Shown: one piece after another, positions 9,420-57,818 of the stretch | Numbering within the stretch: the first letter of the stretch is position 1 | Layout of the letters: every line of letters starts with the position of its first letter | From: a virus | Lineage: Duplodnaviria > Caudoviricetes | Virus record (IMG/VR): IMGVR_UViG_3300033066_001190 | Span: 32,001 to 96,000 of that record | Strand: one strand, 5' to 3' | DNA length: 64,000 nt | Notes under the pieces: generated by a model | Databases searched by the model: none | What the model was told of the DNA's origin: nothing | The model's input: only the letters and a program-made list of their open reading frames with translations | Position numbers and translations under genes: made by a program

Positions 9420-9529
9420 TGGGCTGTAATTCTAAAAAATGTAAACAATGTGGTAAATCTAAACCAGCTTGCCAATTGGTAAATGGTTTATGTTCTACAT
9501 GTATAAGTTTAAATAGCAAGAAACATTAA
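9419..9529 (+). CDS. 36-aa Cys-rich peptide (absent from ORF track)
   Basis: MGCNSKKCKQCGKSKPACQLVNGLCSTCISLNSKKH; TAATG coupling at both ends fills the gap exactly. Confidence 0.75.
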   Translation: MGCNSKKCKQCGKSKPACQLVNGLCSTCISLNSKKH

Positions 9530-33643: not shown

Positions 33644-33656
33644 AAATACAAGAAAT

Positions 33657-36191: not shown

Positions 36192-36218
36192 TCACCGTCA
36201 TAAAATTCATGGATTTTC

Positions 36219-36249
36219 TTTGACTATTAACAAAAAATAATTAATATTG
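36219..36249 (+). promoter_or_regulatory. Putative promoter TTTG-N19-TAATATTG
   Basis: Same spacing as the 2350 element; lies in an intergenic gap. Confidence 0.45.
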
Positions 36250-36253
36250 TAGT

Positions 36254-37705
36254 ATGGGATATAATCAATTCAGTCAAGCTGTACAACCCGTAGATTTATA
36301 TAAACCTATAGATGATAATGTGTTAGCTATGGGTCAAAAGTCTATTTATGACAGAGCTGAAAAATTGGGGGAAAAAGTAAGTGTTGCTGGTCAAAACATA
36401 TTTGGTATCAATACATATGGTAAAGATGCAGAAGTTTTAAATGAGCTGCAAACCACTTTTAACCAACAAATTGAGCAATTAGCTAAAGAAGGATTAGATA
36501 AACCTGATGTACAATCTAGGATTAATACATTGATTAGCCAATATTCTTCCAATCCAGATTTGATTAATATTCACCAACGCAAAGCTCAATATGATCAATT
36601 TGCTAAACAGTTACAAGACTATCAAGAAAAAGGTAAATTTGTTCCACCTTGGAAAATGAAACCTTTACAAGATGCTGAAAACTATTATAGTGGTGATAAA
36701 TATTTAACCAATAAAAGATTTACAGGTTCTATTGAAGCAGGTTTTGATTGGGATAAACACAAAGAATCTGTTGCTAAAGCTGTACCAGAATTAGAATTGC
36801 TTAAAAAAGGAATCACTAATGATGTTTATAAAGGTAAAGCTTATAATAACCTATACTCAGGTTTTTTAAATAGTGTATATACACAACCTGGAGCAATGGA
36901 AGATTTGCAAGGTCAATTTGAACACTACTATGGAGACCAAGATTTTGCTACTGCTGATAAACAATTAGCAGCTTCTCAATATGCTGATTTAAAAGCTATT
37001 TATGACAATACAGAAAATCCTATACAAAAGGAGCAAATAGCAAAAGATTTACAATATTGGAAAGATTTACACGATAATGTAAATCCAAACACATCCAAAA
37101 CTCAGGCTTTTGAACATTATGTAAAATCCGTTGCTCAAGATTTTGCAAATTCTGCAACAAATTTTGCTTTAAAAGAATCAAAATTGTCTGATGCCGAAAC
37201 ATTAAGGCGACAACACAATAATAGAATAAATGAAATAAAAGCTCAACAAGAAGCAAATCTTTCTAAATTGAGAGAAGCTCAAAGAATAAAGGCTTCAGCT
37301 TCTAATATTAGTGATTCTTTACAAAGAAAACTTATTGAAAAAGGTGTTGAGTCTGGATATACTTCTGAATTATTAAATGAGGATGGCTCTTTTAAATCAG
37401 CTTCAGATCTTGTAAAAATGGGATTAAATGATAAAGCAATTGATACCAAATTAAAAGTTGGAGATAAAGAATATGACAAATCTGAAATTGTAGCTAATAT
37501 AAATGCAGGAAATAAAGATTTTATAAAAGATTTTATAAATGCTTATTTACCAGAAGGTGCTGAAGAAGTAAAAATCGAAGGAAATAATATATTGTATGAT
37601 ACTGAAGGATATATCGGAAACCCCTTTGGATTCGATAAAAAAATTACAAAATCAGAATTATTAAAACTAATTGAGAGTGATTCAAAAATAGATGTAGGTA
37701 TTTAA
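36254..37705 (+). CDS. Putative ejection/cargo protein
   Basis: Helical, Cys-free; upstream of the virion RNAP as in crAss-like phages. Confidence 0.5.
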   Translation: MGYNQFSQAVQPVDLYKPIDDNVLAMGQKSIYDRAEKLGEKVSVAGQNIFGINTYGKDAEVLNELQTTFNQQIEQLAKEGLDKPDVQSRINTLISQYSSNPDLINIHQRKAQYDQFAKQLQDYQEKGKFVPPWKMKPLQDAENYYSGDKYLTNKRFTGSIEAGFDWDKHKESVAKAVPELELLKKGITNDVYKGKAYNNLYSGFLNSVYTQPGAMEDLQGQFEHYYGDQDFATADKQLAASQYADLKAIYDNTENPIQKEQIAKDLQYWKDLHDNVNPNTSKTQAFEHYVKSVAQDFANSATNFALKESKLSDAETLRRQHNNRINEIKAQQEANLSKLREAQRIKASASNISDSLQRKLIEKGVESGYTSELLNEDGSFKSASDLVKMGLNDKAIDTKLKVGDKEYDKSEIVANINAGNKDFIKDFINAYLPEGAEEVKIEGNNILYDTEGYIGNPFGFDKKITKSELLKLIESDSKIDVGI

Positions 37706-40700: not shown

Positions 40701-43700
40701 ATAAACCTCAAGAACAAGTAACTCCTGAACCTGTTGAAGAAATTAAATCTGATAACTCTTTTGAAAAAATCAAATCGGAAATTGATAATTTACCAAAAGA
40801 AGAAATAAAAACATTGCAATCTCTTTCTGAGATTGAAGCTAGATATCCTAATTTGAGTGAATCGGATCAAGAAAAGCTTTATGATTATGTAGATACAAAA
40901 CTTAACTCTTTAGAAAAAGAAGCAGATAAAGTGTCTACTTTTAAAGACAAAACAGGTAAAGAATTTTCTCTAACAAAGAAAGATCAAATTCTTGTTAATG
41001 GGGAAGTGTTTAACCCTATTTCCTATGAAAATAATAGACTGAAAGGGAAGTATTTAAATAATTCACAAGAAATATCCCTTAATCCAGAAGATTTTGAAAT
41101 TTCTACAGATAAAGAAGCTATAAATAAAGTTCTTTCTAAAACAAAAAAGGAAGAAACAAAAGAAACAGAGGATTTTATTTCTGCTGAAACTCTTCTTGAT
41201 AAAGAACCTAAAGCTACATCTTCTGATATTGAAGCACAAAAAGCTGATATAGAAAGAAGAAAACAAGAGGAGTTAATCATTCCTAATACAAATACTTCTT
41301 TGTATGACAGTGTTAAAAAATTAGAAAAAGGTATTGAAGATATTACAAACAAAATAGCTGAATTAGAAAAAGAAGGTAAAGGTAATATTGCTAATCAAAG
41401 AACAGGAGTTACATCTCTTTCTGGATTAGCAACTGATAGGAAAAGATTAGAAGACATTCGTGAAAAAGAGCTAGAGAAAATAAACAAAATCAATGCTAAA
41501 TATGATGCAGAATTAGCTGCTTTAGAAGGTAAAAAAGAAGAAACAAAACCTGTAGAAGAAGTTGAACCTGTTTCTAATGAAGAGTTAGAAAAGGAATTAC
41601 TACAAATAAATGAGCAAATTAAAGATGCTTTAAATGATGAAACTTCTACTATAACAGTAGAAGAGTTAGCTAAACTAGCTAATAGACAAAAAGAAATAAA
41701 AGCTGCTTTAGGTATTACAGAATCTAAACCTGAAACTAAAGAAGAAAAGGTTGAAAAAGTACAAGAAAAAGAAACTAAAATAACCGATAGTAAATTAAGT
41801 AAGGTTTACTATCCTTTTTCTACCACTCCTCAATATGTTACAAAATCTGGTATAACTGATGATCCTTTTATTCAAATTCAATCTAACGCTTTAAACAAGC
41901 TTAAAAAGGAGAACGAACTAAAGTCTTATGAAGACATGGGTGTATTTGTTACAGTTATGAACAATACATTCCCATTGGACGAAAAACATCAGCCTAAAAA
42001 TACTCTAGATGCTGTAAATTCAGGTAAAATAACAAAAGAAAGGGTAGAAGAAGGAAGGATTGCTGTTCTTACAAATAAAAATGGAGAACCTTTATATTTT
42101 GACAACGATGGAAATAGAACAACTAGTGATAAAGGAACAGTTGTTTATCAACCATTACGAGGAACTATCAAAGATGGTAAACTTGATATGTCCAAACAAA
42201 ACATTCCAACACAAGAGGAATTAAAAGCTTCTGGAGATTTAGAAAGGTTCAATATAGAAATTCAAAGACTTACAGAAGTACGTCTTTCAAAAGAACCTGT
42301 TACATTAAAAATAGCAGAAATTACTAAAGGTGTTGACAATTTTAATAAATCTGAAAGAACAAAAATTGATTCTAATAAGTATGATATTCTTATAAAATCA
42401 AATGGTTATGTTGTAGCAAAAGATAAAACCAACAACATAGAAGCTCCTATTTATAGGTCAACATTGGAAGCAGCAGGATTATCTGATTTCATTGCTGCCT
42501 TTATGAACATGAATAATAAAGAAGGTTTGGCTGCCAATCTTAAAAATGATTGGCAAGCAAGACGGGATTTCCTAGAAAAAGTTATCTACACATCTCCTGC
42601 TAGAAGAATACGCTTTAATGAACCAAATCTATTTTTAACATCTTCTGAAGAAGTATCTAAACTTCCTGTAAACGTATCCCAAATCTACTTAAATGAAAAA
42701 TTTGATTGGTATAAATGGGACGGTAATAAATTTATCCCAGATAATTTTAATACTTACCAAGATTTCTTGGCAGATAAACTAACTGTAGCTTCTGTATCTC
42801 CTAGTTATAATTCCTATATTAAATTAGGTGAACAAATATCTAAAGAAACAAAACCTATTCAGGAATCACCAAAACCTGAACAAGCTCCTTTAATTCAATC
42901 TCCTGTAGCTAAAGAATTTAAGAAATCAAATAGATCACAAGGAATAAAAATAAATACTGATGCGAAAGGATTATCAGGAGTTAGCAAAAAAACAGACCTT
43001 AAAAGAACTAAACTTCTTGGTAAACGGATTACAGAAGAACAAAATAAAATAGCTAAAGAGTGGTTTGATCAATATTTGAAACAATCAGGAGCTAATTTTG
43101 AAGACTTAAGAGATGTTGTAAATTCTGATGCATGGGCTACATGGTCTACTGCTGCTATTAAATTATGGCAAGGTGGGGATTTTACAGATTTATATCACGA
43201 AGCTTTCCATGATTTCAGTCAATTGTTTTTAACAAAAGAACAAAAGAAATCTCTTTATGACGAAGTAAGAAAAACAAAACCTAGAATATCTGATTTTGAA
43301 GCAGAAGAAATTATAGCTGAGGATTTCAGAAAATACATGTTATCTGGTCAAAAGTTAATTCTTAATAATAGAGTAAAAAGAAATACCATCTTTAGGAAGA
43401 TGTATAACTTTTTAAGAGAGTTATTTACAGGAACACCTTCGTTAGAAGTAGTTTATCAAAAATTAGCTAATCAAAATATTTCTTCTTATAAAAGAAATGT
43501 TGATAATGCTTTATTTGGTAAACTTAATAAAAACATAGAAGGTTTAACCTTCACTGAATCTGTAAATCTATATAGAGCTTTAGATAGCTTAATAGCTAAA
43601 CAATTTAGAGAATTTGGAATACCTATTTCTAGATTATTCAAAGAAAAAGAAGTAATTGAAAAAACATATCAGCAAGTTGCTTTAGATTTAAAAGCTGCTT

Positions 43701-46700
43701 TAGATCAAAATGAACAAGATTACAATGTTTTAGTTGATAGATATGCCGAAGCTGATGAGTTGACAAAATTATCTCTCTTACCAGATTTAACAGCTCTTGA
43801 AAAACTTGTTAACAATCTATCTTTTGTTCTGGAGAATTTTAATGATGTAAGGGCTAAACACCTTGTAGAATCTGAGTTTTTGAAAATCTCTAAAAGCTTT
43901 GTTCCCGAAGAAATAATAGACGAATTAAATCCAGAAACTAAAGATGCTATATATGATGATAAAGAACAGGAATCTGCAAAAGATAGAGCTTCTAATCAAA
44001 TCATTTATCTATTAGCTTCTTTACCGAAATACATTAACAAAAACGGAGAAAAGGTATTAGCTTACAATCCTTTTATTGATGTAATTGAAGACATTACAGA
44101 GTTTGATTTAGCTTGGAATAGGTTAGCTAAAAAACTTACAGGAGTTAGAGATTATAAAGTGATGATTGAAAAAATTCAGGAATTGACAAAAACTAACCCC
44201 GAATATGAAGAATTATTAAAGTCTTTACCAAATCCAAATATGGATGGTAAAGAGTTAACTCTTTTAGAAATTCAGTTAAGAAATCAATTCATTAATACTT
44301 TTTCTCAGCCTTATGTACCATTAAAGTTTGCTTCATGGTGGAAAGATGAAAAAGGTCAATTGAGAATAAATACCAAAGAAGCCACTGGTAAATCATTTGA
44401 TTTATTAAAATTGGATTGGGATGAAAATATTCAATCTATTCCAAACGAATATAGAATATTGGATGAAACTACAGGTCAATATTCTATTGATATTGATAAA
44501 ATAACTAAAGATTTTGAAAACATCAACAAACTTCGTCCAAAAAGGAAAGAAGAGTTTTTAAAAGCTTTGGGATTTTCATTTTCACCACAAACATTAGAAT
44601 CTCCCGAATACCTAGATTTGATTACAGATAATCTTGTATTGGGTAAAATATACAACGCTATAAAAGATTTATCTAATCTCAAAAATGGTATTTTACCAAA
44701 TGGGTATGAATTAACTGATTTTGAAAAAGAGTTTGTAAATAAACCTGTTACATCAATTATTGATGCTATAAAAGTATCTAAACATGGAAAAGATAAAAAT
44801 AGTATTCAGAGATTAGGTGATTCTCCAATTTTAATTCAGGGTCAAAAAGACAACATAGAACAAATTCAAGCTATTGAAATAAATTATTCTGATAGGTATT
44901 TCTCTGATAATTTGTTGAATTCTGAAAACTCAAACGTTTGGGCAATAAGACCTTGGAGTCAACAATCTGTTTTATATAGTTATTTGAATGATCCTAAGTT
45001 TGAAACTTATGAAGATTTAATAAATGATCCAACAGGAGCTTATTTTGATATATCTAAAAACCCAGATGCTGATAATATTTATCTAAATTCTGTATTTGAT
45101 GTTGTAACAGGTAAACGTAGATTAGATAGGAAAGGTAATCCTGTAAAAATTAATCTCTATAACCATAATGGTTTAGAAATCAATTTTGGAAATGAAACAA
45201 AAGGTGGTAAAACAACCTCTCTTTCTAGGTTTGAAAAATTAGTACAAGATATAGCTCCATTGTTATTATCTGGAAACAAGGAGCATATTCGATATGGTGA
45301 TAAAACTACTTCTAATGGTACTGAAATTAGGTTTAAAAGGCTTGTAGAACCTAAAGCTGAAAACCCATACCTACCTGTAGATATATCTTCTTTTAAAAAT
45401 ACTTACCTCCCACAAGAAGCAAAAGCGATATTTAGGAGAATACTTCATTCTGCCCTCTATCAAACCAATCAATATTTTACTGAGGGTATAGGTAAAGATT
45501 TTTCTAACTTTAATCAAAATCTTGAAAAGGAAGAATATTGGGGATATTTTGATGGTATTCTCTCAGAAGAAACCAAAAAAGCTTTAATTAGTCAAGGTTT
45601 AATTGAAAAACCTCTTGATATATTTAAATTGATTGACGATAACTCAAAATTAATTTATAGGGATTTAGAGGTATTTCTTGAAAATGACGTAAAGAAAATA
45701 AAAAAAGAAGTAGAATCTAACTATGCTGTTTCTACCGAAGATTTTATTCCTAATGAACTTTTGAAGAAAACAATCTATGGTGAAACAGAACAACAAAGTT
45801 TAGAAACAATTTATAGGGCTTTTGCTATAAATTCTTACATCATGAATCTTGAACACACTAGATTATTGTTTCAAGATCCTAGATTTTATGATAATAAAAA
45901 AGGTAGTTATAGAGAACCTTTTAAACGTTATGCTAAAGCCTCTTCTACAGGAACTATAGCTGTAAATGATGACCAGCAAAATGAATTTTTACAAGGTAGT
46001 AGATTAGAAAAACAATTATACGATAGTAAAAATCCAGACAACAAATCTCCAGAATGGACAGAAACAGGTATTGAAAACAGTGTTATTTTTAATGATGTTG
46101 TTATTTCTGCTGATGATTTTGTAAACCAAATTGAAGATATATTCAAAGATAAACCTTTAGAAGAACAATTAGCTGTAAGAAAAGCTTATTCTGATATTAC
46201 TTCTACAGATGCTTTTGGTTTTTGTACATTTGATTGGTACAGACAGTGGGAAATTAGAAGTGGAAATGATAATTGGAACAATGAAAAGGAAGAATTATAT
46301 AAGAAAATTGTTACAAAACAACCTATTTCTGAAGACGAATTACTAAAATCTTTTGCTTTTTTCCCACCAAAAAAACTAAGGGTTGTTGGATTTACTTTTA
46401 ATAGGAAGACTAATAGGTTTGTACCTATAGATTATAAATTTGCAGTTTCTCCACTTTTACCTAATTTGGTAGAAGGTAAGACATATGAAGTTGTAAAAGA
46501 TAACATGTTAAGACAGAATATATCTTTGGGATTGTTTAAATCAGCCTCTAAGCATTCTGCAATTACATCTGATGGTAAATTTAATGATTTGTATAATAAA
46601 GATGGAAGCGTTAATACAGGTGATTATACAATTAACCCTATTTACTCTGAATTCATTTTTGAAGTGGTTGCATCTCCAAAAGATTATAAAGGAAGTGTAA

Positions 46701-49700
46701 GTTTTTCAACACAGTTGAGAAAATTGTTGTTTGTCAACTCTTTTAATAATGGAGTACCAATTGATTTTAAAGGTGATAATTGGGAAAGTTTATCTCAATC
46801 TGAAAAAATAAAACAGTCTAACATATATAGACTTGAACAAGAATTTGGGGATACAATAGATAAATTGGTTCAAAATGAGAAAGAAAAGCTATTAAAATCT
46901 CTTAATATAAAAATAGACTCTGAAGGAAATTACGATGTTTCTGAAGAAAAACTATCAGAGTTATTAGAAAAGGAGTTTAAGAAAAGAAATCTACCAAATA
47001 ACGTAATCAAAAGTATACAAACTGTAAATGGTAAATTTAAGTATGCTTTAGACGCATCTTTACAAAGAGAAACAATAGAACAGATAATTCTATCTATTGT
47101 AGATAATAGGTTAAGGAAACAAAAAGGTTTAGGAGAATCCCTCATTCAAGCCTCTTCTATCGGGTATGAAAACAAAACACTTGACAGAGTTAGTAGTTGG
47201 AAATCTATAAATGGTAATGATTTACCTTTTTATCAATATGTAAAAGATGGTAAAACTAAGGCTCAAAAGGTTAAAATAGCTCTACAAGGTGATTTTAAAA
47301 ATCTTTTAAATCTGCCTCAAGTAAAAACTCTTTCTGAAAGAAACGATATAAAACCTATAGAGGCTTTAAATACACTTCTTAAAGACGAAGGTTTTGTAGA
47401 TTCTATAAGAGATTTAATTACTATTACAGGTGTAAGGATTCCTGTACAAGGAACTAACTCTATGGAATTTATGGAAGTTTATGAATTCCTTCCAGAAGAA
47501 GCTGGTTCTGTAATTATTGTTTCTCCTGCTCTTGTAGCTAAATCAGGAGGTGACTTTGACTGGGATAAAATTACATCTTTATATCCTTCTTTTAATGTGA
47601 CAGAATCAGGTATACTGATTTATCCAAATCAATCAGAAAAAGTAAATGAATCTGTATATAGAAATTTAGTAAAAGAATTTGATAAAGAAATTAGCAATGT
47701 TCCTGATTTTTACAATAAATTAATAAAGAGTATTTTTGATATTTCTCCAGAAGATTTACAAGATGAGTTAGTATCAGAAGATATATTTCAAACTAAAACT
47801 GTTCCAAGTTTTAAAACATATAATAGAGTTCAAACTAAGAAAGCTTTGAACAATAGGTTAAATCAAATAATTAGAGAAACCTTAGAAAGACCTGATATGT
47901 TTGAATCTTTGGTTACACCAAACTCTACTTACTTGTTTGAAGATATTGCAGATAAGAGGTTAGAAGCAATTTCTAAAAATAAACCAACTTATTCTGATAT
48001 ACCTAGTGTGACAGAATCACTTAATCAGTTTGAATCAAACACTGTAGGTAAACAATCTTTGGGTATTGGTGCTATATGGAATACATTATTTTCACAAATG
48101 CAAAAAGCAGGAGTGGTTTTAAATAAAACCTATATTACCAACATTGATTCTGCTAAACCGTTAGTAAAACAAACAGTAAACAGACTTCCTCACAACAAAA
48201 CAAAATCAGGAAATATGTCTTTATCTGGGATTTATTCTCAGACTTATAAAGGAACAAAATATCCTATTTCAGAAGTTATATCTCAATTAATGAATGGTTG
48301 GGTGGATGTAGCTAAAAAAGATTGGATTTTCTATATTAATGGTAGAAAAGAAATAGCTCCTACATTATTATATACAGCTACAACAGGTGTTCATAAAGAT
48401 TTGTTAGTAGGCTTTTTTAATCAACCTATTTTGTACGAATACATAAAAAATCTACAAAATTACAAGTCTCAGATAGTAAGGTTAAAAGATGAAAATCTTT
48501 ACAACAATGCTAAAAAGAATGCTATTTATGATACATTGTCTAAATATTTACCAGAATCTATTCTAAATGACTTAACAACTGCTTTTGAAAACGGTTCTCA
48601 AGGTTGGGAATTTTGGAATTACATAAATGTAGAATTGCGAAACTTAGCTGATTCTAATCCAGAAGCATTTGAACCAGAATCATTTATGAAGTTTGCTATT
48701 CCTGTAGATAAAAAATTAGCAATCCCTTCAACAGATCAAGAAAAATTAAATCAGGCTCTTTACTTAGTTCAATTTTTAGAATTACAAGAACAGGGTAATA
48801 TTGTTGAAAAATTGAGAAGGGTTGTTAATCAAGACACTGAAAAACCTGTCAATATTCAATATTCTAAAGAAAGACAGGTTAGAAGAGTTGAGTTAAAGGA
48901 TTATAGATTGATTCCAGAGGAGTATATTGAAAAAATGGCTAACGAATCTGTAATCAAAGGATTTACTCATTCTAAAACAGGTATTGATAAATTTGTTGAA
49001 AAGCTGACAAAAAATGTATTTGAAATAACAAATCATCCAGTTTTTAATAGATTTTTGTATGATGAATTTAATAAACCGACAAAAAATAAATACAAGAATG
49101 AGGAAATTGTTGAATTTGGTAACAGTATACCGTTCTCAATAAAATATAACATTTACGAAGATTGGGTAAAAGCTGTTAAAAACCAGTTTATAGAATACCT
49201 ATATCAAAACTATGTCTATAAGCCAAATACTACACAAAAAGTAGCTAATTATATTTTTGAAAAAATGAAACCTTCTACAGCATTAGCTTTAGAACTAGAA
49301 AATATAAAAACTGCATATCCAGATTTAGTGGAAAATAATCTACTTTTACAATTCTTGATTAGAGATAATTCAAGGGAAAAAGTGGGAGGAAAACCTAAAT
49401 ATGTAAATCTTAAACTTAGAAAAGATAGAATTGATTCATCAACAAGCAATGTATTAACAGAAGCTTTTGAAGATTTATTAAATTCTGATATTTCAGAAAT
49501 ACAACAGTTTTCAAGAAAACTTGCTCATTTTGCATTTATTCAATCAGGTTTACAAAAATCCCCAATTTCTTTTGCAAATATCATTCCTCAAGAACATTAT
49601 GGGGAAGATGTTTCCAACATTATAAAAGCATTTTCTGAATTAATGACAGAAAATCCTTTACAGGCTAAAAGAGAAATACAGAAATTTTATGATGATTATT

Positions 49701-50407
49701 TTAAGAAGTATAACAGAAAATTCTTTATTGCTCAACAAATATTTGATCCTGCAATAGGTAAAGATGTTAATGACATAGATTTTCAAAGTGAAGCTTACAG
49801 ATTCCGTAATTTTGTGAATACAAGAGCTTATGATTTACTTTCTAAAAAACAAAATATAGAGATTAAAAAACAGCAAGAGTTTTTAGATTCTGTTAAAAAA
49901 ATGTCTACTATTTCAGACACCCCTTTTACAGAAACTACGGCTAAAGAAAATCCAAATAATTTTTATATTTACGAATTCAATGAAAGTAAATCTGGAAAAT
50001 TGGGATCATCAAAAGTTAGAGAAGGTGGAAATAACACTGCTGCTATTATTTTAATGAAACAAGCTAAAGTGGAAGGCGGTAATTGGACAGATGATACATA
50101 TGCATCTAACATTAACCAAATAGATAGCTCTATTTCAGAAGCAATAGCAAAAATTCAACAACAAAAACCAGAGTCTATTGTTTTCCCTACAAATCTTACA
50201 CAATTTTCTAAATTACAACAATTTGCTCCTAAGACGGCTGCATATTTATACAAAGCATTACAAGATAATTTTGGAATAGATATAAAACCTGCTGATTTTG
50301 ATAATTTTAAAGAAGCACCTGCTGTTGAACCTACTGTAACTACAGAAGTAAAACCTATAAATGATATTATTAAAGATTTAGGAGAAGATCCTTTAACAAA
50401 ATGTTAA
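37709..50407 (+). CDS. Giant virion RNA polymerase polyprotein with zincin domain
   Basis: RIPVQG.NS...GGDFDWDK (DxDxD at 47552-47566), STQLRKL, GK..LGI.A, ISQLMNGWVDVAK; HEAFH...EE..AE.F at 43196-43330. Confidence 0.88.
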   Translation: MAETLKDLYGKLEKANIKLPDYDTFEKKYNTPEGADVLYKKLNSANIKLPDVESFKSKYFTTSTSDNLVKQDSDNIITKNLKNIVSNVTGYQFDQPEQKGIDFVFGKDKQNRSINTPSATITIDEESEPNYKLAALQTTGKVNLTPEDMDNPYVVERVRANKRNIDDQIQKVKDAYIETKDTDVLFSGIEDLKKIYQTKEGSFVKNQLDKDSKKIEEEIKLLENYKTENSGKGSELFPDEAEKIVGKKGILTKADVGNRLKELYAIRNTPKKELDDLLQVDESLNQVAKSLIKYKDDLAEAARETPEILVNQKEDNLLYNLAEYGTKVSNTNSKELYDANLLKFKKRIASDEQGNFIDLRQLLSNTTNNDYYTSNLVGDRAKFQEDTYNGIKALRDNIALAKDEKYGIPAQIKRLQQEKQQLIDTYAKANVPVPEQELRAFDDIIKYNENKLTNQNALSKKLDEIEKQYLSEYKDVKQYKEDNTKLSELYLKDSSKVGVLDQVSLEAKPFYKTLYGITGGVAQAIEQNITLPLEEKTGIISKEQRIAQSLDNYYAINNVNFLYVPDAIKNRQSIKITKDDKAPLGFKINDVNVRAALSEGVNTFIQSYAFGKAGQLFGKASGLSGAIGEELGTVWGGAFTSNVMMSEIDDQNIEKFLRGEIKFDDIVPKSTLEKTLEGATEAIWIPELKVLDHAGQEIVKKYALGKFLQESVGRKMLSDDFKYLAKTVVKNAIEVPLHESIEEIAGNAGQDVIDIAYKKSNLKYNPEENFTLLNNIQTALVTTISMWVTSAVGITSSALNRASIGDTYNYEIAKNADEFYNYAVAGINELDNKEFSKIYPQFASKQEAISTTKKVYDQYKQLFNEAAPTTSMLVSDVDKQNYFNILMDLKKMSLEPATEENTKKAAILLSKKLAYDVKASELRNKPIKERLSATLDESIDQLATDDINVPTLQATILQMEKWKTLLGDDKQYTKDVQRLDNKIAEVKQRIIDLTPVSDKPQEQVTPEPVEEIKSDNSFEKIKSEIDNLPKEEIKTLQSLSEIEARYPNLSESDQEKLYDYVDTKLNSLEKEADKVSTFKDKTGKEFSLTKKDQILVNGEVFNPISYENNRLKGKYLNNSQEISLNPEDFEISTDKEAINKVLSKTKKEETKETEDFISAETLLDKEPKATSSDIEAQKADIERRKQEELIIPNTNTSLYDSVKKLEKGIEDITNKIAELEKEGKGNIANQRTGVTSLSGLATDRKRLEDIREKELEKINKINAKYDAELAALEGKKEETKPVEEVEPVSNEELEKELLQINEQIKDALNDETSTITVEELAKLANRQKEIKAALGITESKPETKEEKVEKVQEKETKITDSKLSKVYYPFSTTPQYVTKSGITDDPFIQIQSNALNKLKKENELKSYEDMGVFVTVMNNTFPLDEKHQPKNTLDAVNSGKITKERVEEGRIAVLTNKNGEPLYFDNDGNRTTSDKGTVVYQPLRGTIKDGKLDMSKQNIPTQEELKASGDLERFNIEIQRLTEVRLSKEPVTLKIAEITKGVDNFNKSERTKIDSNKYDILIKSNGYVVAKDKTNNIEAPIYRSTLEAAGLSDFIAAFMNMNNKEGLAANLKNDWQARRDFLEKVIYTSPARRIRFNEPNLFLTSSEEVSKLPVNVSQIYLNEKFDWYKWDGNKFIPDNFNTYQDFLADKLTVASVSPSYNSYIKLGEQISKETKPIQESPKPEQAPLIQSPVAKEFKKSNRSQGIKINTDAKGLSGVSKKTDLKRTKLLGKRITEEQNKIAKEWFDQYLKQSGANFEDLRDVVNSDAWATWSTAAIKLWQGGDFTDLYHEAFHDFSQLFLTKEQKKSLYDEVRKTKPRISDFEAEEIIAEDFRKYMLSGQKLILNNRVKRNTIFRKMYNFLRELFTGTPSLEVVYQKLANQNISSYKRNVDNALFGKLNKNIEGLTFTESVNLYRALDSLIAKQFREFGIPISRLFKEKEVIEKTYQQVALDLKAALDQNEQDYNVLVDRYAEADELTKLSLLPDLTALEKLVNNLSFVLENFNDVRAKHLVESEFLKISKSFVPEEIIDELNPETKDAIYDDKEQESAKDRASNQIIYLLASLPKYINKNGEKVLAYNPFIDVIEDITEFDLAWNRLAKKLTGVRDYKVMIEKIQELTKTNPEYEELLKSLPNPNMDGKELTLLEIQLRNQFINTFSQPYVPLKFASWWKDEKGQLRINTKEATGKSFDLLKLDWDENIQSIPNEYRILDETTGQYSIDIDKITKDFENINKLRPKRKEEFLKALGFSFSPQTLESPEYLDLITDNLVLGKIYNAIKDLSNLKNGILPNGYELTDFEKEFVNKPVTSIIDAIKVSKHGKDKNSIQRLGDSPILIQGQKDNIEQIQAIEINYSDRYFSDNLLNSENSNVWAIRPWSQQSVLYSYLNDPKFETYEDLINDPTGAYFDISKNPDADNIYLNSVFDVVTGKRRLDRKGNPVKINLYNHNGLEINFGNETKGGKTTSLSRFEKLVQDIAPLLLSGNKEHIRYGDKTTSNGTEIRFKRLVEPKAENPYLPVDISSFKNTYLPQEAKAIFRRILHSALYQTNQYFTEGIGKDFSNFNQNLEKEEYWGYFDGILSEETKKALISQGLIEKPLDIFKLIDDNSKLIYRDLEVFLENDVKKIKKEVESNYAVSTEDFIPNELLKKTIYGETEQQSLETIYRAFAINSYIMNLEHTRLLFQDPRFYDNKKGSYREPFKRYAKASSTGTIAVNDDQQNEFLQGSRLEKQLYDSKNPDNKSPEWTETGIENSVIFNDVVISADDFVNQIEDIFKDKPLEEQLAVRKAYSDITSTDAFGFCTFDWYRQWEIRSGNDNWNNEKEELYKKIVTKQPISEDELLKSFAFFPPKKLRVVGFTFNRKTNRFVPIDYKFAVSPLLPNLVEGKTYEVVKDNMLRQNISLGLFKSASKHSAITSDGKFNDLYNKDGSVNTGDYTINPIYSEFIFEVVASPKDYKGSVSFSTQLRKLLFVNSFNNGVPIDFKGDNWESLSQSEKIKQSNIYRLEQEFGDTIDKLVQNEKEKLLKSLNIKIDSEGNYDVSEEKLSELLEKEFKKRNLPNNVIKSIQTVNGKFKYALDASLQRETIEQIILSIVDNRLRKQKGLGESLIQASSIGYENKTLDRVSSWKSINGNDLPFYQYVKDGKTKAQKVKIALQGDFKNLLNLPQVKTLSERNDIKPIEALNTLLKDEGFVDSIRDLITITGVRIPVQGTNSMEFMEVYEFLPEEAGSVIIVSPALVAKSGGDFDWDKITSLYPSFNVTESGILIYPNQSEKVNESVYRNLVKEFDKEISNVPDFYNKLIKSIFDISPEDLQDELVSEDIFQTKTVPSFKTYNRVQTKKALNNRLNQIIRETLERPDMFESLVTPNSTYLFEDIADKRLEAISKNKPTYSDIPSVTESLNQFESNTVGKQSLGIGAIWNTLFSQMQKAGVVLNKTYITNIDSAKPLVKQTVNRLPHNKTKSGNMSLSGIYSQTYKGTKYPISEVISQLMNGWVDVAKKDWIFYINGRKEIAPTLLYTATTGVHKDLLVGFFNQPILYEYIKNLQNYKSQIVRLKDENLYNNAKKNAIYDTLSKYLPESILNDLTTAFENGSQGWEFWNYINVELRNLADSNPEAFEPESFMKFAIPVDKKLAIPSTDQEKLNQALYLVQFLELQEQGNIVEKLRRVVNQDTEKPVNIQYSKERQVRRVELKDYRLIPEEYIEKMANESVIKGFTHSKTGIDKFVEKLTKNVFEITNHPVFNRFLYDEFNKPTKNKYKNEEIVEFGNSIPFSIKYNIYEDWVKAVKNQFIEYLYQNYVYKPNTTQKVANYIFEKMKPSTALALELENIKTAYPDLVENNLLLQFLIRDNSREKVGGKPKYVNLKLRKDRIDSSTSNVLTEAFEDLLNSDISEIQQFSRKLAHFAFIQSGLQKSPISFANIIPQEHYGEDVSNIIKAFSELMTENPLQAKREIQKFYDDYFKKYNRKFFIAQQIFDPAIGKDVNDIDFQSEAYRFRNFVNTRAYDLLSKKQNIEIKKQQEFLDSVKKMSTISDTPFTETTAKENPNNFYIYEFNESKSGKLGSSKVREGGNNTAAIILMKQAKVEGGNWTDDTYASNINQIDSSISEAIAKIQQQKPESIVFPTNLTQFSKLQQFAPKTAAYLYKALQDNFGIDIKPADFDNFKEAPAVEPTVTTEVKPINDIIKDLGEDPLTKC

Positions 50408-50414
50408 AACAAAA

Positions 50415-53267
50415 ATGAGCTGTTCATTAAATAAAACAAAAAAATTAGCAAGAGATAAGGGTATCATGAATGAGTTTAACAACTTACCAAGTGATACACC
50501 TCAAAGTGTTAATAATTTTAACAAATTTGCTGCAAACATAAAAGATTTAGCAATTTCTAAATTTGGAAAGCTTCCTGAAGGACTAACTCAACCTATCCGT
50601 TTAGAAGGAATAAAGGTTATTTTTAATAGAGGGTTTTTTGAATGGGTTGATAGGGAAAATGATAAACTTTCTTCTAATCAAAATAAACTATTTCAAAAAC
50701 AGTCTCAAGAAGGCATTATAGCTTCTGAAAAAACCATTCGTGATTTAGCTGCAAGAATATCGGATAGAATAGGAATTCCTTATAAAATTATTTCCGATAG
50801 AACACAGGAATTCAAAGGAAAAATTGAAAGTAATACAGCTATAATTAACTTAGCTTATGCTACATTAGATACACCTATACATGAAATATTAGGGCATCCT
50901 ATTATTAGGGCTATTAAAAATAATAAAGTTTTATCTGAAAAAGAATTTACTCAAGAAATATATGAAGGTAAAAGAACTTTAAAAGGTAAAACTGTTTTAG
51001 ATGATTATATAGATTATCAATCTGAAAAATTACAGCAAAATAATTATCATAAATTATATCAAAACCTTCTTAAAGAACTTGAATACGGTAAAGGTAAAGA
51101 AGTATTAGATAGAATTAAAAGGGATTATGTTTATAAAGCAGACTTTAAAAGAGATAATATAATTAAACAAATAAATGATTTAAAGTTTGAAGAAAACCAG
51201 TATATAAAATGGGATGAAAAAGAAGCATTAGCTTCTGTTCAAGAAAGAAAAAAAGTATTAGAGGAGGAATTAGAAAAAAATTATTCTGCTAATAAATACT
51301 CTTTAGAAGAACAACAAGAAGAAGCTATTGTAGAATTATTGGGTTTAATGACTGCTGATAAACTAGATGCTGTAAAAGATGGTAAACTAATATCTCTTCT
51401 CAAAAGGCTTCTTAAAGAAATGAAGCAATTTGTTCGTTCTTTATTAAGACAAAGAAAAGTAGAAATAGACAAATTACCTGATAATATGACATTAGGTGAT
51501 TTAGCTGATTTATTAGCGTATTCTAATAGTAAATTAATACTACCTGGATATGAAGTAATTTACACTACTCCTGATAATCAACAATTTAAAACTTATGCGG
51601 AAGCAAGTAATCATATTAGTGAATTGACTAAAAGTGTCAGAGATGTTGATTTAGATAATATTAAAATTCAAAAAGAAAAAGTAAACAACCCTGATGATAT
51701 AATAGTAGATAGTTTTGAAATTAGACATGATGATAAAATGCCTTCAGAATATGTAAGAATTGATGGCAAATGGTATCAGGAAGTTTTTTATACTCCAGAA
51801 TACTCTGGAGATCCTGGAGTAGAACATTATCCTATTTCTGATGAAAAAATTATTTCTTTATTTAATTCTCCTGAACAAATAGGAGTTTTTAAAACAGGAA
51901 TTGATATTTTAGGTTTTATACAAAAAAACAAAGAATATGAACAATCTAAAGAAATTATAGAAGAATGGAAAAAAGTAAATAACATTCAATATAATCCCGA
52001 AGAAATATATTCAAGGGGTCAAGAGTTTAGTTCTGTTGTAGGAGCTTATTCTTCTTTTGATGTAAATCTTATGATGCAGAATCTTCTTCAACATATAGAA
52101 GATAACGAAAAAGCAGGTGGTAAATTTGCTATTTCTGCATTTACTAAACCTATTGATAAACAAATAGGTCATTTAGAAGGTGAAGGAGGTAAGATTAAAT
52201 TTAAAATTTACCCCAAATCAGAAGATATTTTATGGGCAGCTAATACAGATGTTTATTCAGGAAGTGTTTGGGATGCTTCTGAAAAAGTAAGCAAAGATAA
52301 AAAATCTGAATTGTTAGGAGTTAGTTATACTAAATATCCAGCTTTAGTAAATGTTAATAAAGTGCAACCTAATTTAGCTTCTATTGTAGATGACTTGGCA
52401 CATCATCATAACGAATTAGGTATAGTTCTTACAGGTAATAATTTTAGATTAGAATATGATGAAGATATTCCTTATTCTACTAAAAAAATTATTGATTCTG
52501 TTAATTCAATACTAGATGAAAAATATGGTAAATTAGTTAAACCTGAAATTAGTAAAATCACTACTATTCCAAATACATTTGAATATTGGCAACAAGATAT
52601 GTATGAAGATGGAGGAGTAGATAGATTTAAAATAAAAATTTATAAAAAAGATAATAAGTGGTTTGAAGAATTTTTTGATACTAGGGGACAATCTGAAAGT
52701 ATTAGAGAGATTACTTATAAAGAAGTAGAAACTCAATTTAATGAAGCATTAGCTTCTAATTCTACACTTACAAAAAACAAAGGTATTCAACCAACTCAAA
52801 CTAATGAAACTTTAAAAGAGAGTATTCAAAATATTATAAATAAAATTCCTAGACAAGGGGAATTTGATTATTATGAATCTGATGGATATTTTTACATAAC
52901 ACAAAATCAAACAGAAATAGGTGTTGTAGCTTCTAAAGAAGAAGCTCTTAAACAAATTAAAGAATTAAATAATGGTAATAAAGAATATACTTCTCAAGCG
53001 TTGATTAACACTAAAATAGCAAAATTAAAAGAAGTAGCTAAAAAATATCCAAGAAGTTTAATTAGAAGTGAAGTTAAAAAGGAAACGAACAAATATGGTT
53101 TAGAGCGTGAATTTTTTGGAGATGAATTACCTTTTCAAAAAATATCTTCGGTAAATTACCAATCTTTATTATCTTTAAAACCTAATACAGATATTACAGA
53201 ACAAGAATGGGATGAATTAGATCAAGAAGAAAAAGAAGTTATATTATATCAAGCTAAAAATTGCTAA
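50415..53267 (+). CDS. Large cargo protein with zincin-like (HExxGH) domain
   Basis: DTPIHEILGHP...EEAIVELLG. Confidence 0.55.
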   Translation: MSCSLNKTKKLARDKGIMNEFNNLPSDTPQSVNNFNKFAANIKDLAISKFGKLPEGLTQPIRLEGIKVIFNRGFFEWVDRENDKLSSNQNKLFQKQSQEGIIASEKTIRDLAARISDRIGIPYKIISDRTQEFKGKIESNTAIINLAYATLDTPIHEILGHPIIRAIKNNKVLSEKEFTQEIYEGKRTLKGKTVLDDYIDYQSEKLQQNNYHKLYQNLLKELEYGKGKEVLDRIKRDYVYKADFKRDNIIKQINDLKFEENQYIKWDEKEALASVQERKKVLEEELEKNYSANKYSLEEQQEEAIVELLGLMTADKLDAVKDGKLISLLKRLLKEMKQFVRSLLRQRKVEIDKLPDNMTLGDLADLLAYSNSKLILPGYEVIYTTPDNQQFKTYAEASNHISELTKSVRDVDLDNIKIQKEKVNNPDDIIVDSFEIRHDDKMPSEYVRIDGKWYQEVFYTPEYSGDPGVEHYPISDEKIISLFNSPEQIGVFKTGIDILGFIQKNKEYEQSKEIIEEWKKVNNIQYNPEEIYSRGQEFSSVVGAYSSFDVNLMMQNLLQHIEDNEKAGGKFAISAFTKPIDKQIGHLEGEGGKIKFKIYPKSEDILWAANTDVYSGSVWDASEKVSKDKKSELLGVSYTKYPALVNVNKVQPNLASIVDDLAHHHNELGIVLTGNNFRLEYDEDIPYSTKKIIDSVNSILDEKYGKLVKPEISKITTIPNTFEYWQQDMYEDGGVDRFKIKIYKKDNKWFEEFFDTRGQSESIREITYKEVETQFNEALASNSTLTKNKGIQPTQTNETLKESIQNIINKIPRQGEFDYYESDGYFYITQNQTEIGVVASKEEALKQIKELNNGNKEYTSQALINTKIAKLKEVAKKYPRSLIRSEVKKETNKYGLEREFFGDELPFQKISSVNYQSLLSLKPNTDITEQEWDELDQEEKEVILYQAKNC

Positions 53268-56200
53268 ATGGCTGCACATTGTATAAATATAAATAGTCCC
53301 GATTTTAAAAAATTGCTGGAAGAAACAGGTTTTAAATCTGAAATTCTATCTGCTAAAATATCTATTTGGCAAGACAAAGTGGGTAAAATAGATCAATTTC
53401 CAAGCAAGTATGAATTATTTAAGTTAGAAACAGATAAAGAAGAGGGTAAATTGCAATCTGAAATTTCTGACATTGTAAAAGAAATAGAGAATGCAGATAA
53501 AGAAACTATTGTAAAAACAGTAGATGAATATTTTACCATTATTTCAAACCACTTAAAAAACCTAAGAGAAAGAAAATCTTACTCTAGACTTAAAAAAATA
53601 CTAACTACTTCAGAAGGTATAAACAAATTAAGTACATTACAAGACATACTTTCTCAAGCTAAGAAGCTAGAAGAAACCATTGAAAATGATTCAAGAAAGA
53701 TAAGAGCTATTGCTAAATCAGTTGTGCAAATAAATCACTTAACAGATCTGGTATTAGAAGATGTAAAAGATATAGTTAAATCTAAAGATGATTCCGTAGA
53801 AAATCTCCAAGTACTGCAAAGTTATTTAAACGTTTTAAATGATTGGGATATATTGTTAGACCAAGCTAGTCAATCTTTTGCAATTGGAAATCCTCTAACA
53901 ACAAAAAAGGTTGGAGAAGTAAAATTAAAAATCAAGCAAATTGAAAACCTCATTTCTAAAAATGATGAATTAGGAATTATTAAAGTTTTACAAAAGGTAT
54001 TAATTCCTGCATCCGAAGATATTATGAAGTTTTTAGAGCAAGAATTATCTGCTCAAAAACAAAGATTGCAAAGAAATATAGATAGAAAAGCTGGTGATAG
54101 TACAATAAAATCAATAGAATCTTCTATAAAAGCAATAGAAACAAAAATGAAAGAGCTTGATTTTAACAATGCTCAAAACATTTTAGACTTCTTAAAAGGT
54201 AAAAGAGGGGATGCTACTGTTTTTAATACTTGGTTAGAATCATTTAGAGATTCTTCTGATCCTACCATAGCTGCTTTTGCAACATTTTTAAAAGAAAAAA
54301 CTGATGAAGTAGCTAACAAAGTTTACAAAACTGACCTACAATATCAAAAAGATTTAGCTCCTTACATAAAAGAATCTGAAAGACTTGATCCTTCTATACT
54401 AACTAAAAAAATAACTTTTGAGGATTTGATTTTACAAGATGGTGAACCCACCACTGTATTATCTTTACTAAATCCTTGGAAAAATTATAGATTGGATTAT
54501 GCTCAATATTCAGAAAATGAGCAATTAGCAAAACAAAAGTATTTGGAAACTAATTCAGAAGAAGATAGAAAAGAATATTTACAAAAGAAAAAAGAAAGAC
54601 AATCTTTTGAGCAAAATGTGTTATACACTGAATTTGTTCCAGAAGTGTATGAAAAATATAAACTTTTTGATGATGAAATAGGTCAAGAACTTAAAAAAGA
54701 GTCTGATGAAATATGGGAAAAAGTAAATGAAATAGATGAAGCTTATAAATTATTTGGCACTGAATTAACTTCAGAACAAGAGGAACAAAAAGAAGCTTTA
54801 TTGTTGCAATATAAAATGCTTGGTAATTTAAATAAACCTGATGGAACTCCTAAAACAGGTAAAGATTTAGAGAAAGCTAAAAGAATGCAAGAAGTAAGAG
54901 CATTAAATAGAAAATTTTATGAATGGAAAGACAACTTAACCCAATTTGAAAAAGCTAAAGAAAGACATTCTGAATATATTATTTCCAAAGGTATTCCTGA
55001 AGATTCAGATGAATATAAATTAGAAATGAAAAAATGGGAAGATGAAAACTCTAGATTTGTTATAAAGGATGAATTTTACAAAAAGAGAGATAGCATTGTA
55101 AGAGAAATAGCTATTTTAACTAAAAAGTTTAAAAATAGTGATATAGATGAAAATATATCAGAATTGTGGAAAACAATACAATCTATTACATATGGGTTAA
55201 GGGATGAAGACAATCAACCTATTGGAATCCTTATACAGGAAAAAGGAGCTGAAAGAATAAAAGCTGCTCAAGAAGCTATACAAGATCTACAAAATAAAGT
55301 AACTAAAATATCAGGACTGTCTTTTGACGAACAAGCTGAAATGAGTAGATTGTTTGAAAAAGCTAAAAACAGAGAGATTACTCCTGAAGAAAGAAATGAT
55401 TTAGATTATCTTGTGGATAAATCAAAAACTGAAGGGTTGTCTAAAACTCAAAAAGAAAGACTTTTTCAATTATTTCAAGAACTAAAAGATTTACAATCCA
55501 CTTTACCTACAGAATATTATGTACAGGCTTTTAATAACTTGTCTACTAAATATTCAGTGGTGTTATTGGAAACAGGGGAAGTTGTTGAATCTGATGGAGC
55601 AATTGTTCCAATATTGGAATCAAAAGTGCTATCTAAATTGTTATCAAATCCTGATTTTAAAGAATGGTTTGATCTAAATCACATTCAAGTAGAAAAATAC
55701 AATCCTGAAAAAGAAGCAAAAGAATTAAAATGGCAAAGAACTTACCAATGGAATAAAATTATTCCAAACAATCCTGATTATATAGAGGTTAAGCCTTCCT
55801 TAAAATACAGTTATAGGGAGATAAAACCCGAATACAAAACAGAAAGAATAGTTGGAAAAACTGTAGATAATAAAGGAAATTGGTTACCAAATCCAGATAA
55901 AAAGGGAAGTGCTGCATATAGAAATGAAAAGTATGAGCAATTAGTAAAAGGTAAGGATGATGAGTCTAAGAGATTGTCTAAAATATTAGACATTCATACA
56001 AAATACTTATTAGACACTCAAGAAAGTCTATCCAGAGTTAATAAACTTTACTTAGATGTTCCTAGAGAAGAAAGAGAATCATATGAGCAAAACATAGCTT
56101 TTTTAAAAGATTTTATGAAATCTCCTGGCTCTATACCTAAATTAATATGGGAAAGAATCAAAGAAAAGTATAACAAATTAACATCTTACAATGAATCTGA

Positions 56201-57818
56201 TGTAAGTTATGAATCACCTTTTGAAGGTAAATACGACAAAGATTTTATCAAAATACCTATGAAGTATATAGGTAAAATTGATTTAAATGAAGTTTCTTTA
56301 AATTTACAAAAAAGTATTTCTAGATATAATTATTCATCTGAATTAAACAAGCAATTGGTAGAAACACTTCCTGTAGCAAGAGCTTTAAATAGAGTTTTAG
56401 AAAATAATGATGTCCATAAACCTAATAAAAAGAAAAATCCTCATAGAAAGAATGCTATTCAAAAACTAATAATTAGGGAATTTGAGGGAAAAAAATCTAA
56501 TTTAGAACTAGAAAATCTAGGAGCTGGTAAAAAACCTGTAGCAGCAACAATAAATTTAATGAAATATTTAGCTGCGTGGTCAAGTATTAGGCTTAATATC
56601 CCTGCTGCTGTAACTAACGTTGTTAATGCTGTTGCTCAAAACTGGATAAATGCAGGTAATCACTTATATTCTAAATCTAGCTATGCATTATCTGAATTAA
56701 TTTATGCTACTAGATTTTTTCCAAATTGGCAAAGAGATTATTATGAAAACAAGTTAGGTAATTTATCAATAGAATCTCAATTAGTTGATGTTTGGCAACC
56801 TGTACAAGGAGAAACAATTGAAGAAAACATAGGAAAGAAGTTTTCTCAATCAAAAGCCTATGACACATTAGCAGCAAATTGGCTGTTTAATTTACGTAAT
56901 TGGGGGGAATTTTATGTTCAAACAAGAACATGGATTTCAGCTTTATACGAAACAAAAGTTAATTATGGACAAGATGTAATATCTTTAATAGATGCTTATG
57001 AACTTGATTCAGATGGTATTATTAAATTGAAAGATGGGGTAGATAAGTCATGGGAAGTTGATGGAGAAAAGTTTAATAGATTAAAAAACCAAATACAAGC
57101 TTTAAACCGTAAAATACATGGCAATTATGCAACTTTCGATAAAACTCAATTAGAAATGTATGCTTTAGGATCATTAGCAATGTTCTTAAAACGATTTTTT
57201 GTTTCTATGGCCGCTAATAGATTTGCTTTTGGTGGCAATATTCATGAAGGTAGGTTTGATATAAATTCAGGTATTCAATATGGATATTATACTCAAACCT
57301 TGTCAATAGCTATTAAACAATTACAAAATGGTTTAAAAGATTGGGATTTATTAACAACAGAGCAAAAAAGAGCTTTAACTAAAACAACAATGGAAGTAGC
57401 TGTCATATTAGGAGCATTAGCTTTAATGATGGCAATGGGTTATTCTGGAGATGATAAAAACAAAAAGAAAAAACTCATTAATTATTCATGGTTAGAGCTA
57501 CATGTTTTATATCAGTTAGATAGACTTTATATAGAGACTTCATCTTTTATAAGCCCTAAATCTTATTTTGATTATGTTCTCGATTTTCAAATAAAAAAAT
57601 CACTAGAAAAATGGTATAAACTGCTTACAGATATTATTTCTCAAAATGAATATGAATCCTCCCTTAAAAATACAAAGGGAGAATTCATATACAAAAAGGG
57701 AGATAAAAAATGGAAAACTCAATTAAAAAGAGCTACAGGAATACAGCAATTAATGATGTCTGAAAAAGATCCTGATATTTTGCTACAAAGTTATGATAGA
57801 AGTGTTAGAGGGAAATAA
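53268..57818 (+). CDS. Large ejection/cargo protein (crAss RNAP-associated)
   Basis: 1516 aa, helical; HGNY...K...G...M...F...RF motif; C-terminal hydrophobic helix. Confidence 0.6.
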   Translation: MAAHCININSPDFKKLLEETGFKSEILSAKISIWQDKVGKIDQFPSKYELFKLETDKEEGKLQSEISDIVKEIENADKETIVKTVDEYFTIISNHLKNLRERKSYSRLKKILTTSEGINKLSTLQDILSQAKKLEETIENDSRKIRAIAKSVVQINHLTDLVLEDVKDIVKSKDDSVENLQVLQSYLNVLNDWDILLDQASQSFAIGNPLTTKKVGEVKLKIKQIENLISKNDELGIIKVLQKVLIPASEDIMKFLEQELSAQKQRLQRNIDRKAGDSTIKSIESSIKAIETKMKELDFNNAQNILDFLKGKRGDATVFNTWLESFRDSSDPTIAAFATFLKEKTDEVANKVYKTDLQYQKDLAPYIKESERLDPSILTKKITFEDLILQDGEPTTVLSLLNPWKNYRLDYAQYSENEQLAKQKYLETNSEEDRKEYLQKKKERQSFEQNVLYTEFVPEVYEKYKLFDDEIGQELKKESDEIWEKVNEIDEAYKLFGTELTSEQEEQKEALLLQYKMLGNLNKPDGTPKTGKDLEKAKRMQEVRALNRKFYEWKDNLTQFEKAKERHSEYIISKGIPEDSDEYKLEMKKWEDENSRFVIKDEFYKKRDSIVREIAILTKKFKNSDIDENISELWKTIQSITYGLRDEDNQPIGILIQEKGAERIKAAQEAIQDLQNKVTKISGLSFDEQAEMSRLFEKAKNREITPEERNDLDYLVDKSKTEGLSKTQKERLFQLFQELKDLQSTLPTEYYVQAFNNLSTKYSVVLLETGEVVESDGAIVPILESKVLSKLLSNPDFKEWFDLNHIQVEKYNPEKEAKELKWQRTYQWNKIIPNNPDYIEVKPSLKYSYREIKPEYKTERIVGKTVDNKGNWLPNPDKKGSAAYRNEKYEQLVKGKDDESKRLSKILDIHTKYLLDTQESLSRVNKLYLDVPREERESYEQNIAFLKDFMKSPGSIPKLIWERIKEKYNKLTSYNESDVSYESPFEGKYDKDFIKIPMKYIGKIDLNEVSLNLQKSISRYNYSSELNKQLVETLPVARALNRVLENNDVHKPNKKKNPHRKNAIQKLIIREFEGKKSNLELENLGAGKKPVAATINLMKYLAAWSSIRLNIPAAVTNVVNAVAQNWINAGNHLYSKSSYALSELIYATRFFPNWQRDYYENKLGNLSIESQLVDVWQPVQGETIEENIGKKFSQSKAYDTLAANWLFNLRNWGEFYVQTRTWISALYETKVNYGQDVISLIDAYELDSDGIIKLKDGVDKSWEVDGEKFNRLKNQIQALNRKIHGNYATFDKTQLEMYALGSLAMFLKRFFVSMAANRFAFGGNIHEGRFDINSGIQYGYYTQTLSIAIKQLQNGLKDWDLLTTEQKRALTKTTMEVAVILGALALMMAMGYSGDDKNKKKKLINYSWLELHVLYQLDRLYIETSSFISPKSYFDYVLDFQIKKSLEKWYKLLTDIISQNEYESSLKNTKGEFIYKKGDKKWKTQLKRATGIQQLMMSEKDPDILLQSYDRSVRGK

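Follow-up and report, generated by a model that had tools for sequence, protein, structure and literature searches.

In the cyanopodophage A4 (Anabaena phage A-4L), cryo-electron microscopy of the pre-ejectosome revealed that the C-terminal helix of gp27 is inserted into gp26 and locked there by a disulfide between Cys1715 of gp27 and Cys5 of gp26 (PMC12002296). We checked both sequences and found that these two residues are the only cysteines (Cys) of gp27 (1717 residues) and gp26 (1114 residues). The report on A4 mentions this bond as a single feature of the structure and draws from it no rule, chain or portable module (PMC12002296). Herein, we describe a recurrent Cys pattern that resembles this arrangement in what appears to be a distant crAss-like phage. 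The DNA analysed, called the window below, is a stretch of 64,000 nucleotides (positions 32,001 to 96,000 of IMG/VR record IMGVR_UViG_3300033066_001190; record length 106.6 kb, about 80% complete). Three abutting open reading frames (ORFs) on its + strand encode consecutive giant proteins of 4232, 950 and 1516 residues, the first of which carries the virion RNA polymerase (vRNAP), and their few Cys lie almost entirely at the ends where one protein adjoins the next. As in A4, where the Cys of gp27 is three residues from the C-terminus, consecutive giant proteins of this presumably ejected type have a sole or near-sole Cys close to the upstream C-terminus and another at about residue 5 downstream. 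A4 differs in having one junction between two proteins, a pentameric ring and no RNA polymerase (RNAP). Since blastp of the window proteins against A4 gp27 and gp26 gave nothing better than E 0.34, A4 is an analogue and not a member of the same family.

Packaging in the virion and ejection are known, from mass spectrometry, only for the RNAP-block proteins of phi14:2 and crAss001 (10.1101/2020.03.07.982082; PMC10172136). Like the window, the blocks gp67-gp66-gp65 of phi14:2 and gp47-gp50-gp49 of crAss001 contain a homologue of the RNAP with the DFDxD motif and encode giant virion proteins 3' of the tail genes, and they follow the same terminal-Cys rule at both junctions. The sole Cys of phi14:2 gp67 (1797 residues) is its final residue, gp66, the vRNAP (2180 residues), has only Cys3 and Cys2179, and gp65 (1421 residues) has only Cys3. 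In crAss001, gp47 has only Cys2339 (of 2341 residues), gp50 has Cys5, Cys1334 and Cys2404 (of 2412), and gp49 has only Cys5. The rule is also followed in cr111_1, cr106_1, cr55_1, cr4_1 and cr108_1 and between gp45 and gp44 of Carjivirus. The genes are cut differently, however: the window fuses the gp67-like and RNAP parts and splits the following protein into pieces of 950 and 1516 residues, and the 950-residue family matched no deposited phage by tblastn and gave no profile match to phi14:2 gp65 by hhalign. More distant ejected proteins, namely gp50 (the virion RNAP, 3,500 residues), gp51 and gp52 of N4 (Schitoviridae) and the internal proteins gp14-16 of T7, resemble those of the window in being strongly Cys-depleted, with zero Cys in the three N4 proteins and in T7 gp15 and gp16, but they have no terminal Cys pairs. 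Cys depletion is therefore general for ejected proteins, whereas the terminal pairs are not.

The original prediction, made from the sequence of the window, held that the three proteins contain five Cys, four of them at adjoining termini, and that the two outer ends are Cys-free. The ORF translations and Cys positions confirm this exactly. Cys was found only at 2839 and 4232 (the final residue) of the first protein, only at 3 and 950 (again the final residue) of the second and only at 5 of the third, so that four of the five Cys among 6,698 residues are located at the two gene junctions, and neither the N-terminus of the 4232-residue protein nor the C-terminus of the 1516-residue protein has one. 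The probability of at least four of five Cys landing inside four 6-residue intervals at the junctions is 8e-10. The Cys content of the chain proteins is 0.05-0.2%, versus 0.2-6.8% in the other proteins of the window.

We surveyed the junctions of 39 related viral contigs and the window, requiring a Cys in the last 1-8 residues of the upstream protein (a C-terminal hook) and a Cys at residue 3-6 of the downstream protein (an N-terminal hook). Both Cys were present at 46 distinct junctions (38 direct and 8 across an inserted gene), representing at least eight distinct junction positions, and neither was present in 24 control gene pairs. The N-terminal Cys was found at residue 3 (19 times), 4 (10 times), 5 (7 times) or 6 (twice); the C-terminal Cys was the final residue 14 times and the second from the end 11 times, and never lay more than 8 residues from the end. 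At the hooks, Cys is encoded by TGT (76) as well as TGC (13). Of 120 homologues of the 950-residue protein, about 85 carry a Cys at residue 2-6, a second within the last 1-7 residues and no other. Among 27 homologues of the 1516-residue protein, 25 have a single Cys in 1,500-2,650 residues, located at residue 3-6, and a C-terminal Cys is absent from all 27.

Where a 950-like and a 1516-like part are fused in one gene (12 loci; 2,053-4,071 residues), the junction Cys are absent, and the C-terminal module with its hook helix is absent as well. Two contigs with ORFs of 2,874 and 4,081 residues, open at both ends, likewise have no junction-type Cys. The outer ends of the chain never bear Cys in the surveyed relatives, although for the first N-terminus this is based on the window, the eight reference phages and P0149, since searches with the N-terminal 700 residues of the 4232-residue protein gave almost only fragments. 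In crAss001 and cr106_1, the first chain gene is encoded on one strand and the other two on the opposite one; because the rule is kept there, it is a property of the proteins and not a signal in the DNA of the junction. The rule is thus conserved across the order, is absent from fusions and chain ends and is independent of gene adjacency. The original prediction had expected a C-terminal Cys to co-occur with an N-terminal Cys of the next chain member, both to vanish in gene fusions and the chain ends to be Cys-free; the 46 junctions strongly support the first expectation, and the fused genes and the outer ends agree with the others.

The Cys at the ends belong to small recurrent modules. The last 40 residues of the 950-residue protein and the first 50 residues of the 1516-residue protein represent recurrent module types (alignments A2 and A3), here called type A. 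AlphaFold2 models place Cys950 directly after the terminal helix, likewise confident, and Cys5 within a coil tail before two confident helices; a Foldseek search of the PDB with the N-terminal model returned nothing below E 4. The profile of the type-A N-terminal module matched 36 proteins, always starting at residue 1-5 and never internally. The types on the two sides of a junction covary: type-A C-terminal modules face type-A N-terminal modules in 8 of 8 cases, and a C-terminal type ending in ...KEC faces an N-terminal CKY.Y type at 5 of 6 junctions. The type-A pair is located at the 950|1516 junction in the window and at the junction between the RNAP and the 950-residue family in most relatives, indicating that the pair moves as a unit. 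Within a single genome, the junctions differ in hook type (seen in the window and in loci L002, L004, L008 and L027), which is what a defined chain order would need; in L034, A-like N-terminal modules occur at two junctions. An ESMFold2 complex prediction for the last 55 residues of the 950-residue protein and the first 60 of the 1516-residue protein weakly supports their docking, with a score of 0.59 (Cys-Cys distance not included) against 0.00 for the best of three controls; at least 97% of contacts agreed between runs, and the partner had a predicted local distance difference test (pLDDT) value of at least 77. Of 80 solved complexes, 58 reached the mark used for this score, as did 2 of 110 mismatched pairs; both of those mismatches, but only 7 of the solved complexes, passed with a score of 0.60 or less.

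In relatives, an endonuclease gene can carry both hooks. A GIY-YIG gene (PF01541, SegE-like), flanked by a C-terminal hook ending in ...KEC and an N-terminal hook starting with M-A-C-K-Y, interrupts the 950-residue family at three sites (184/207, 354/359 and 703 in the numbering of the 950-residue protein), each of which is found in 8-11 distinct proteins. The hook residues are additional, and the unsplit protein of the window runs through all three sites without a break; the additions amount to approximately 16 + 27 residues at site 703, 8 + 23 at 184/207 and 26 + 34 at 354/359. No endonuclease gene is located at the junctions of the window itself. The closest described case is Aeromonas phage Aeh1, in which the free-standing endonuclease gene mobE splits the gene into NrdA-a and NrdA-b and the new tails, absent from the unsplit homologue, are essential for activity and reassemble the enzyme (Crona et al., PMC3045599). 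The cassette differs from Aeh1 in that its tails are Cys-tipped and in that the same tail pair and GIY-YIG gene occur at three sites of one family. Its layout of half gene, endonuclease and half gene is also that of fractured genes with split inteins (Dassa et al., PMC2677866), but the added peptides of the cassette comprise only about 16 and about 27 residues. These are too short for an intein fold, so no splicing is expected and the halves should stay separate chains. A split intein was accordingly rejected on size (the two intein fragments together have about 130 residues or more), and no intein domain was found among the Pfam matches. A group I intron was also rejected: Rfam searches of four loci gave nothing at the gathering threshold, and there was no match at E<=1 across the cassette of L008, which has approximately 130 nt outside the ORF.

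At about 11865-11875 of L008, and also in L014, L017 and L027, the ATG that starts the endonuclease gene shares nucleotides with the Cys and stop codons closing the upstream C-terminal hook, so that hook and endonuclease are physically interlocked. Genes for ferritin, DUF5856, an amidase and a YkuD-domain protein are also inserted at junctions of relatives. In L022 (9308-9796), L028 (8532-9023), L006 (4383-4736) and L027 (7426-7779), a C-hooked and an N-hooked cargo gene are separated by exactly such an insertion, a ferritin (PF00210) or DUF5856 gene. The simplest explanation for such insertions is that the junctions are the only permissive sites in a block of giant ORFs.

Given the paired hooks and the A4 precedent, it seems probable (about 0.65 by our estimate) that the three proteins are joined by dock-and-lock disulfide tethers at their terminal Cys. 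In this model, the window proteins would be pieces of a polyprotein that relatives encode as one. Each internal end would bear a small helical docking module with a single Cys at its tip, the C-terminal module of one protein would bind the N-terminal module of the next, and the Cys pair would be oxidised to a disulfide after the particle leaves the reducing cytoplasm. The outcome would be a near-linear covalent chain 4232-950-1516 of about 771 kDa, in which the tether replaces the peptide bond of the fused form and would keep the pieces at 1:1:1 in packaging and ejection. As the link is end to end, with overhangs of no more than 8 and 5 residues, the chain would remain thread-like. That the bond is a disulfide in crassviruses would follow by analogy with A4. 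The chain could pass the tail as one thread and be separated by reduction in the host. In crAss001 virions, inter-subunit disulfides are present in tail (hub and ring) and portal-vertex proteins, and the cargo must partly unfold to pass constrictions of <50 Å (PMC10172136). The linkage put forward in the original prediction gains support from the comparative Cys pattern and the A4 geometry, while its disulfide, threading and reductive release are what we infer. That prediction also regarded the 950-residue protein as a plug-in module for effector delivery, a view that is only partly borne out. Small double-hooked modules of this kind do exist (124, 199 and 318 residues in L028, L032 and L034), but the 950-residue protein has a conserved HExxH core and is fused to the 1516-like part in relatives; judged from sequence, it is a fission fragment.

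Several points weigh against the tethered chain. The junctions share ancestry, so that 46 overstates the number of independent events, which is far smaller. Many crassvirus hosts live in anoxic, reducing habitats, and a search of the 106.6-kb record for a thioredoxin gave no match; a search for Erv1 was uninformative, as the family matched no control genome either. L028 includes an N-hooked protein that is not preceded by a C-hooked partner, the Cys is set back about 60 residues from the C-terminus in L017 and some other proteins, and the only Cys of Carjivirus communis gp47 (L042, 706-3279), second from the C-terminus, is an orphan hook, as the next protein, gp46, has no Cys. The cargo is also not resolved in the crAss001 maps (PMC10172136).

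The orphan hooks of Carjivirus gp47 and L028 would be accommodated if the terminal Cys reacted not with the neighbour but with a third partner, such as the portal, the capsid interior or other cargo. We consider this unlikely, because 46 junctions have the C- and the N-terminal Cys as a pair and neither chain end has one, the hook types covary across junctions and the endonuclease cassette carries both hooks jointly into new sites. It is slightly less likely that the hooks dock while their thiols bridge a metal ion or engage in other non-disulfide chemistry. Sequence alone does not distinguish the two chemistries, assembly takes place in a reducing cytoplasm and ferritin genes are located at some junctions of relatives, though the junctions are also the only sites of this block that permit insertion. 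Each side, however, offers a single Cys, and only 1 of 46 hook Cys on the C-terminal side and 2 of 46 on the N-terminal side have a His no more than 4 residues away, so that no tetrahedral Zn-type site is apparent; the same geometry in A4 is a disulfide.

Middle proteins with exactly one Cys per end could instead cyclise from N- to C-terminus, or like ends could pair with each other (A-A or C-C). The single-hooked first and last proteins would stay unpaired under cyclisation, and homotypic pairing predicts neither the joint appearance of both sides nor the co-variation of types, which makes intramolecular or homotypic disulfides improbable. A negligible chance is left to coincidence, composition or a nucleotide-level signal such as translational coupling or start-codon overlap. 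One cassette type does have Cys and stop codons overlapping the endonuclease ATG. The probability calculated for the window alone, the varying position of the Cys, the use of both Cys codons and the persistence of the rule with genes on opposite strands or separated by other genes nevertheless refute this explanation as far as sequence data can.

Some side observations concern the exceptions and other Cys. The junction of L028 that breaks the rule has a 57-residue CxxC ORF (5608-5781) between a hook-less giant ORF and the N-hooked protein. In L017 (5546-7219), P0033, P0047, P0074 and P0098, a conserved C-terminal domain of approximately 60 residues comes after a hook-type Cys; this domain by eye resembles the end motifs of the 937-residue cargo protein of the window (33600-33640) and may be a separate packaging or processing signal. 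The 851-residue cargo-like protein (33636-36191) has only Cys60 and Cys68; this C-x7-C spacing is also seen in crAss001 gp45 (390, 398), cr111_1 (224, 232) and cr106_1 (259, 267), and phi14:2 g069, for comparison, has Cys at 369 and 378. In the structural block at 8985-12636, Cys-rich proteins (2.5-6.8%) likewise have terminal Cys at adjoining ends: Cys is the last residue encoded by the ORF at 10512-10913, and M-S-C opens both of the ORFs that follow (starting at 10913 and 11656). These may be related clasps, given the disulfide-linked tail hub and ring proteins of crAss001.

The features of the locus are collected in Table 1. Portal and head-protein matches and gene order fit a distant crAss-like phage. 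The vRNAP label given to the 4232-residue protein in the original prediction holds: its C-terminal half matches crAss-like RNAPs by tblastn (69 records, including Carjivirus gp44 and, at E 6e-14, phi14:2 g066), and its DFDWD fits the DFDxD catalytic motif named for crAss-like vRNAPs in the abstract of 10.1101/2020.03.07.982082. PHROGs and Pfam searches of the cargo proteins returned nothing besides DUF7831, and the 4232-residue protein had no match among PDB sequences. With 129 matches in the search, the 950-residue protein belongs to a large uncultured family. Its HExxH, invariant in 38 homologues, suggests a zincin-like metallopeptidase; the protein had no Pfam or PHROG match. Members of the family bear varied effector-type Pfam domains (ART-PolyVal, NADAR/YbiA, zeta-toxin-like kinase and RNase H).

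Table 1. Features of the vRNAP cargo locus. All coordinates are positions within the 64,000-nucleotide window.
Feature	Position	Strand	Remarks
Three upstream cargo-like proteins (937, 851 and 483 residues)	30830..37705	+	No terminal Cys; outside the chain
Chain member 1, 4232-residue giant protein, 485 kDa	37709..50407	+	Carries virion RNA polymerase; no N-terminal Cys
Homology to crAss-like RNAP catalytic subunit (phi14:2 g066, Carjivirus gp44)	45626..48490	+	tblastn
Cys2839 codon	46223..46225	+	Sole non-terminal Cys among the three proteins
DFDWD at residue 3282	47552..47566	+	Fits DFDxD catalytic motif of crAss-like vRNAPs
Pfam DUF7831	49925..50254	+	Just 5' of the C-terminal hook of the 4232-residue protein
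Cys4232 codon (TGT)	50402..50404	+	C-terminal hook, junction 1
Chain member 2, 950-residue protein, 110 kDa	50415..53267	+	Hook at each end
Cys3 codon of the 950-residue protein	50421..50423	+	N-terminal hook, junction 1
HEILGH in the 950-residue protein	50880..50897	+	HExxH invariant in 38 homologues
C-terminal hook module, type A	53145..53264	+	Three short helices; ends in Cys950
Cys950 codon	53262..53264	+	C-terminal hook, junction 2
Chain member 3 (last), 1516-residue protein, 177 kDa	53268..57818	+	Sole Cys is Cys5; no C-terminal Cys
N-terminal hook module, type A	53268..53417	+	Cys5 in coil tail, then two helices
Cys5 codon of the 1516-residue protein	53280..53282	+	N-terminal hook, junction 2

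The original prediction knew of no description of such a linkage. In general terms this is not entirely accurate, as the A4 disulfide of the same geometry had been seen by cryo-electron microscopy; for Crassvirales, our literature search found no description of terminal Cys or cargo disulfides, and crassvirus cargo Cys or disulfides are not mentioned in PMC10172136 or in 10.1101/2020.03.07.982082. The one disulfide of A4 and the tails of Aeh1 had been described before; new are the chain rule that spans the order, the hook modules in matching pairs and the endonuclease cassette with its Cys-tipped hooks. A wider and more tentative proposal, to which we give somewhat less than even odds, is that Crassvirales and their relatives possess a set of portable protein connectors in the form of orthogonal docking peptides tipped with Cys. 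A giant ejected polyprotein could thereby be cut at many places, partly by cassettes that bring both connector halves, and the pieces would be delivered as one covalent, redox-cleavable train that accepts small double-hooked modules.

If this proposal is true, a selfish endonuclease inside an essential gene has a third solution beside introns and inteins, and genes can be fragmented by endonuclease cassettes without loss of function. The short, apparently orthogonal dock-and-lock peptide pairs would also be usable in protein engineering. Tethering would explain why other Cys have been purged from the ejected proteins, and it would bear on the earlier suggestion that a fused polyprotein is cleaved, since split forms that are re-tethered would imply that linkage itself is selected. 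No other phages of the human gut are as abundant as crassviruses. For the way in which these phages store their RNAP-associated cargo of about 0.7 MDa and eject it, the order-wide rule gives a concrete model that is cheaply testable in culture.

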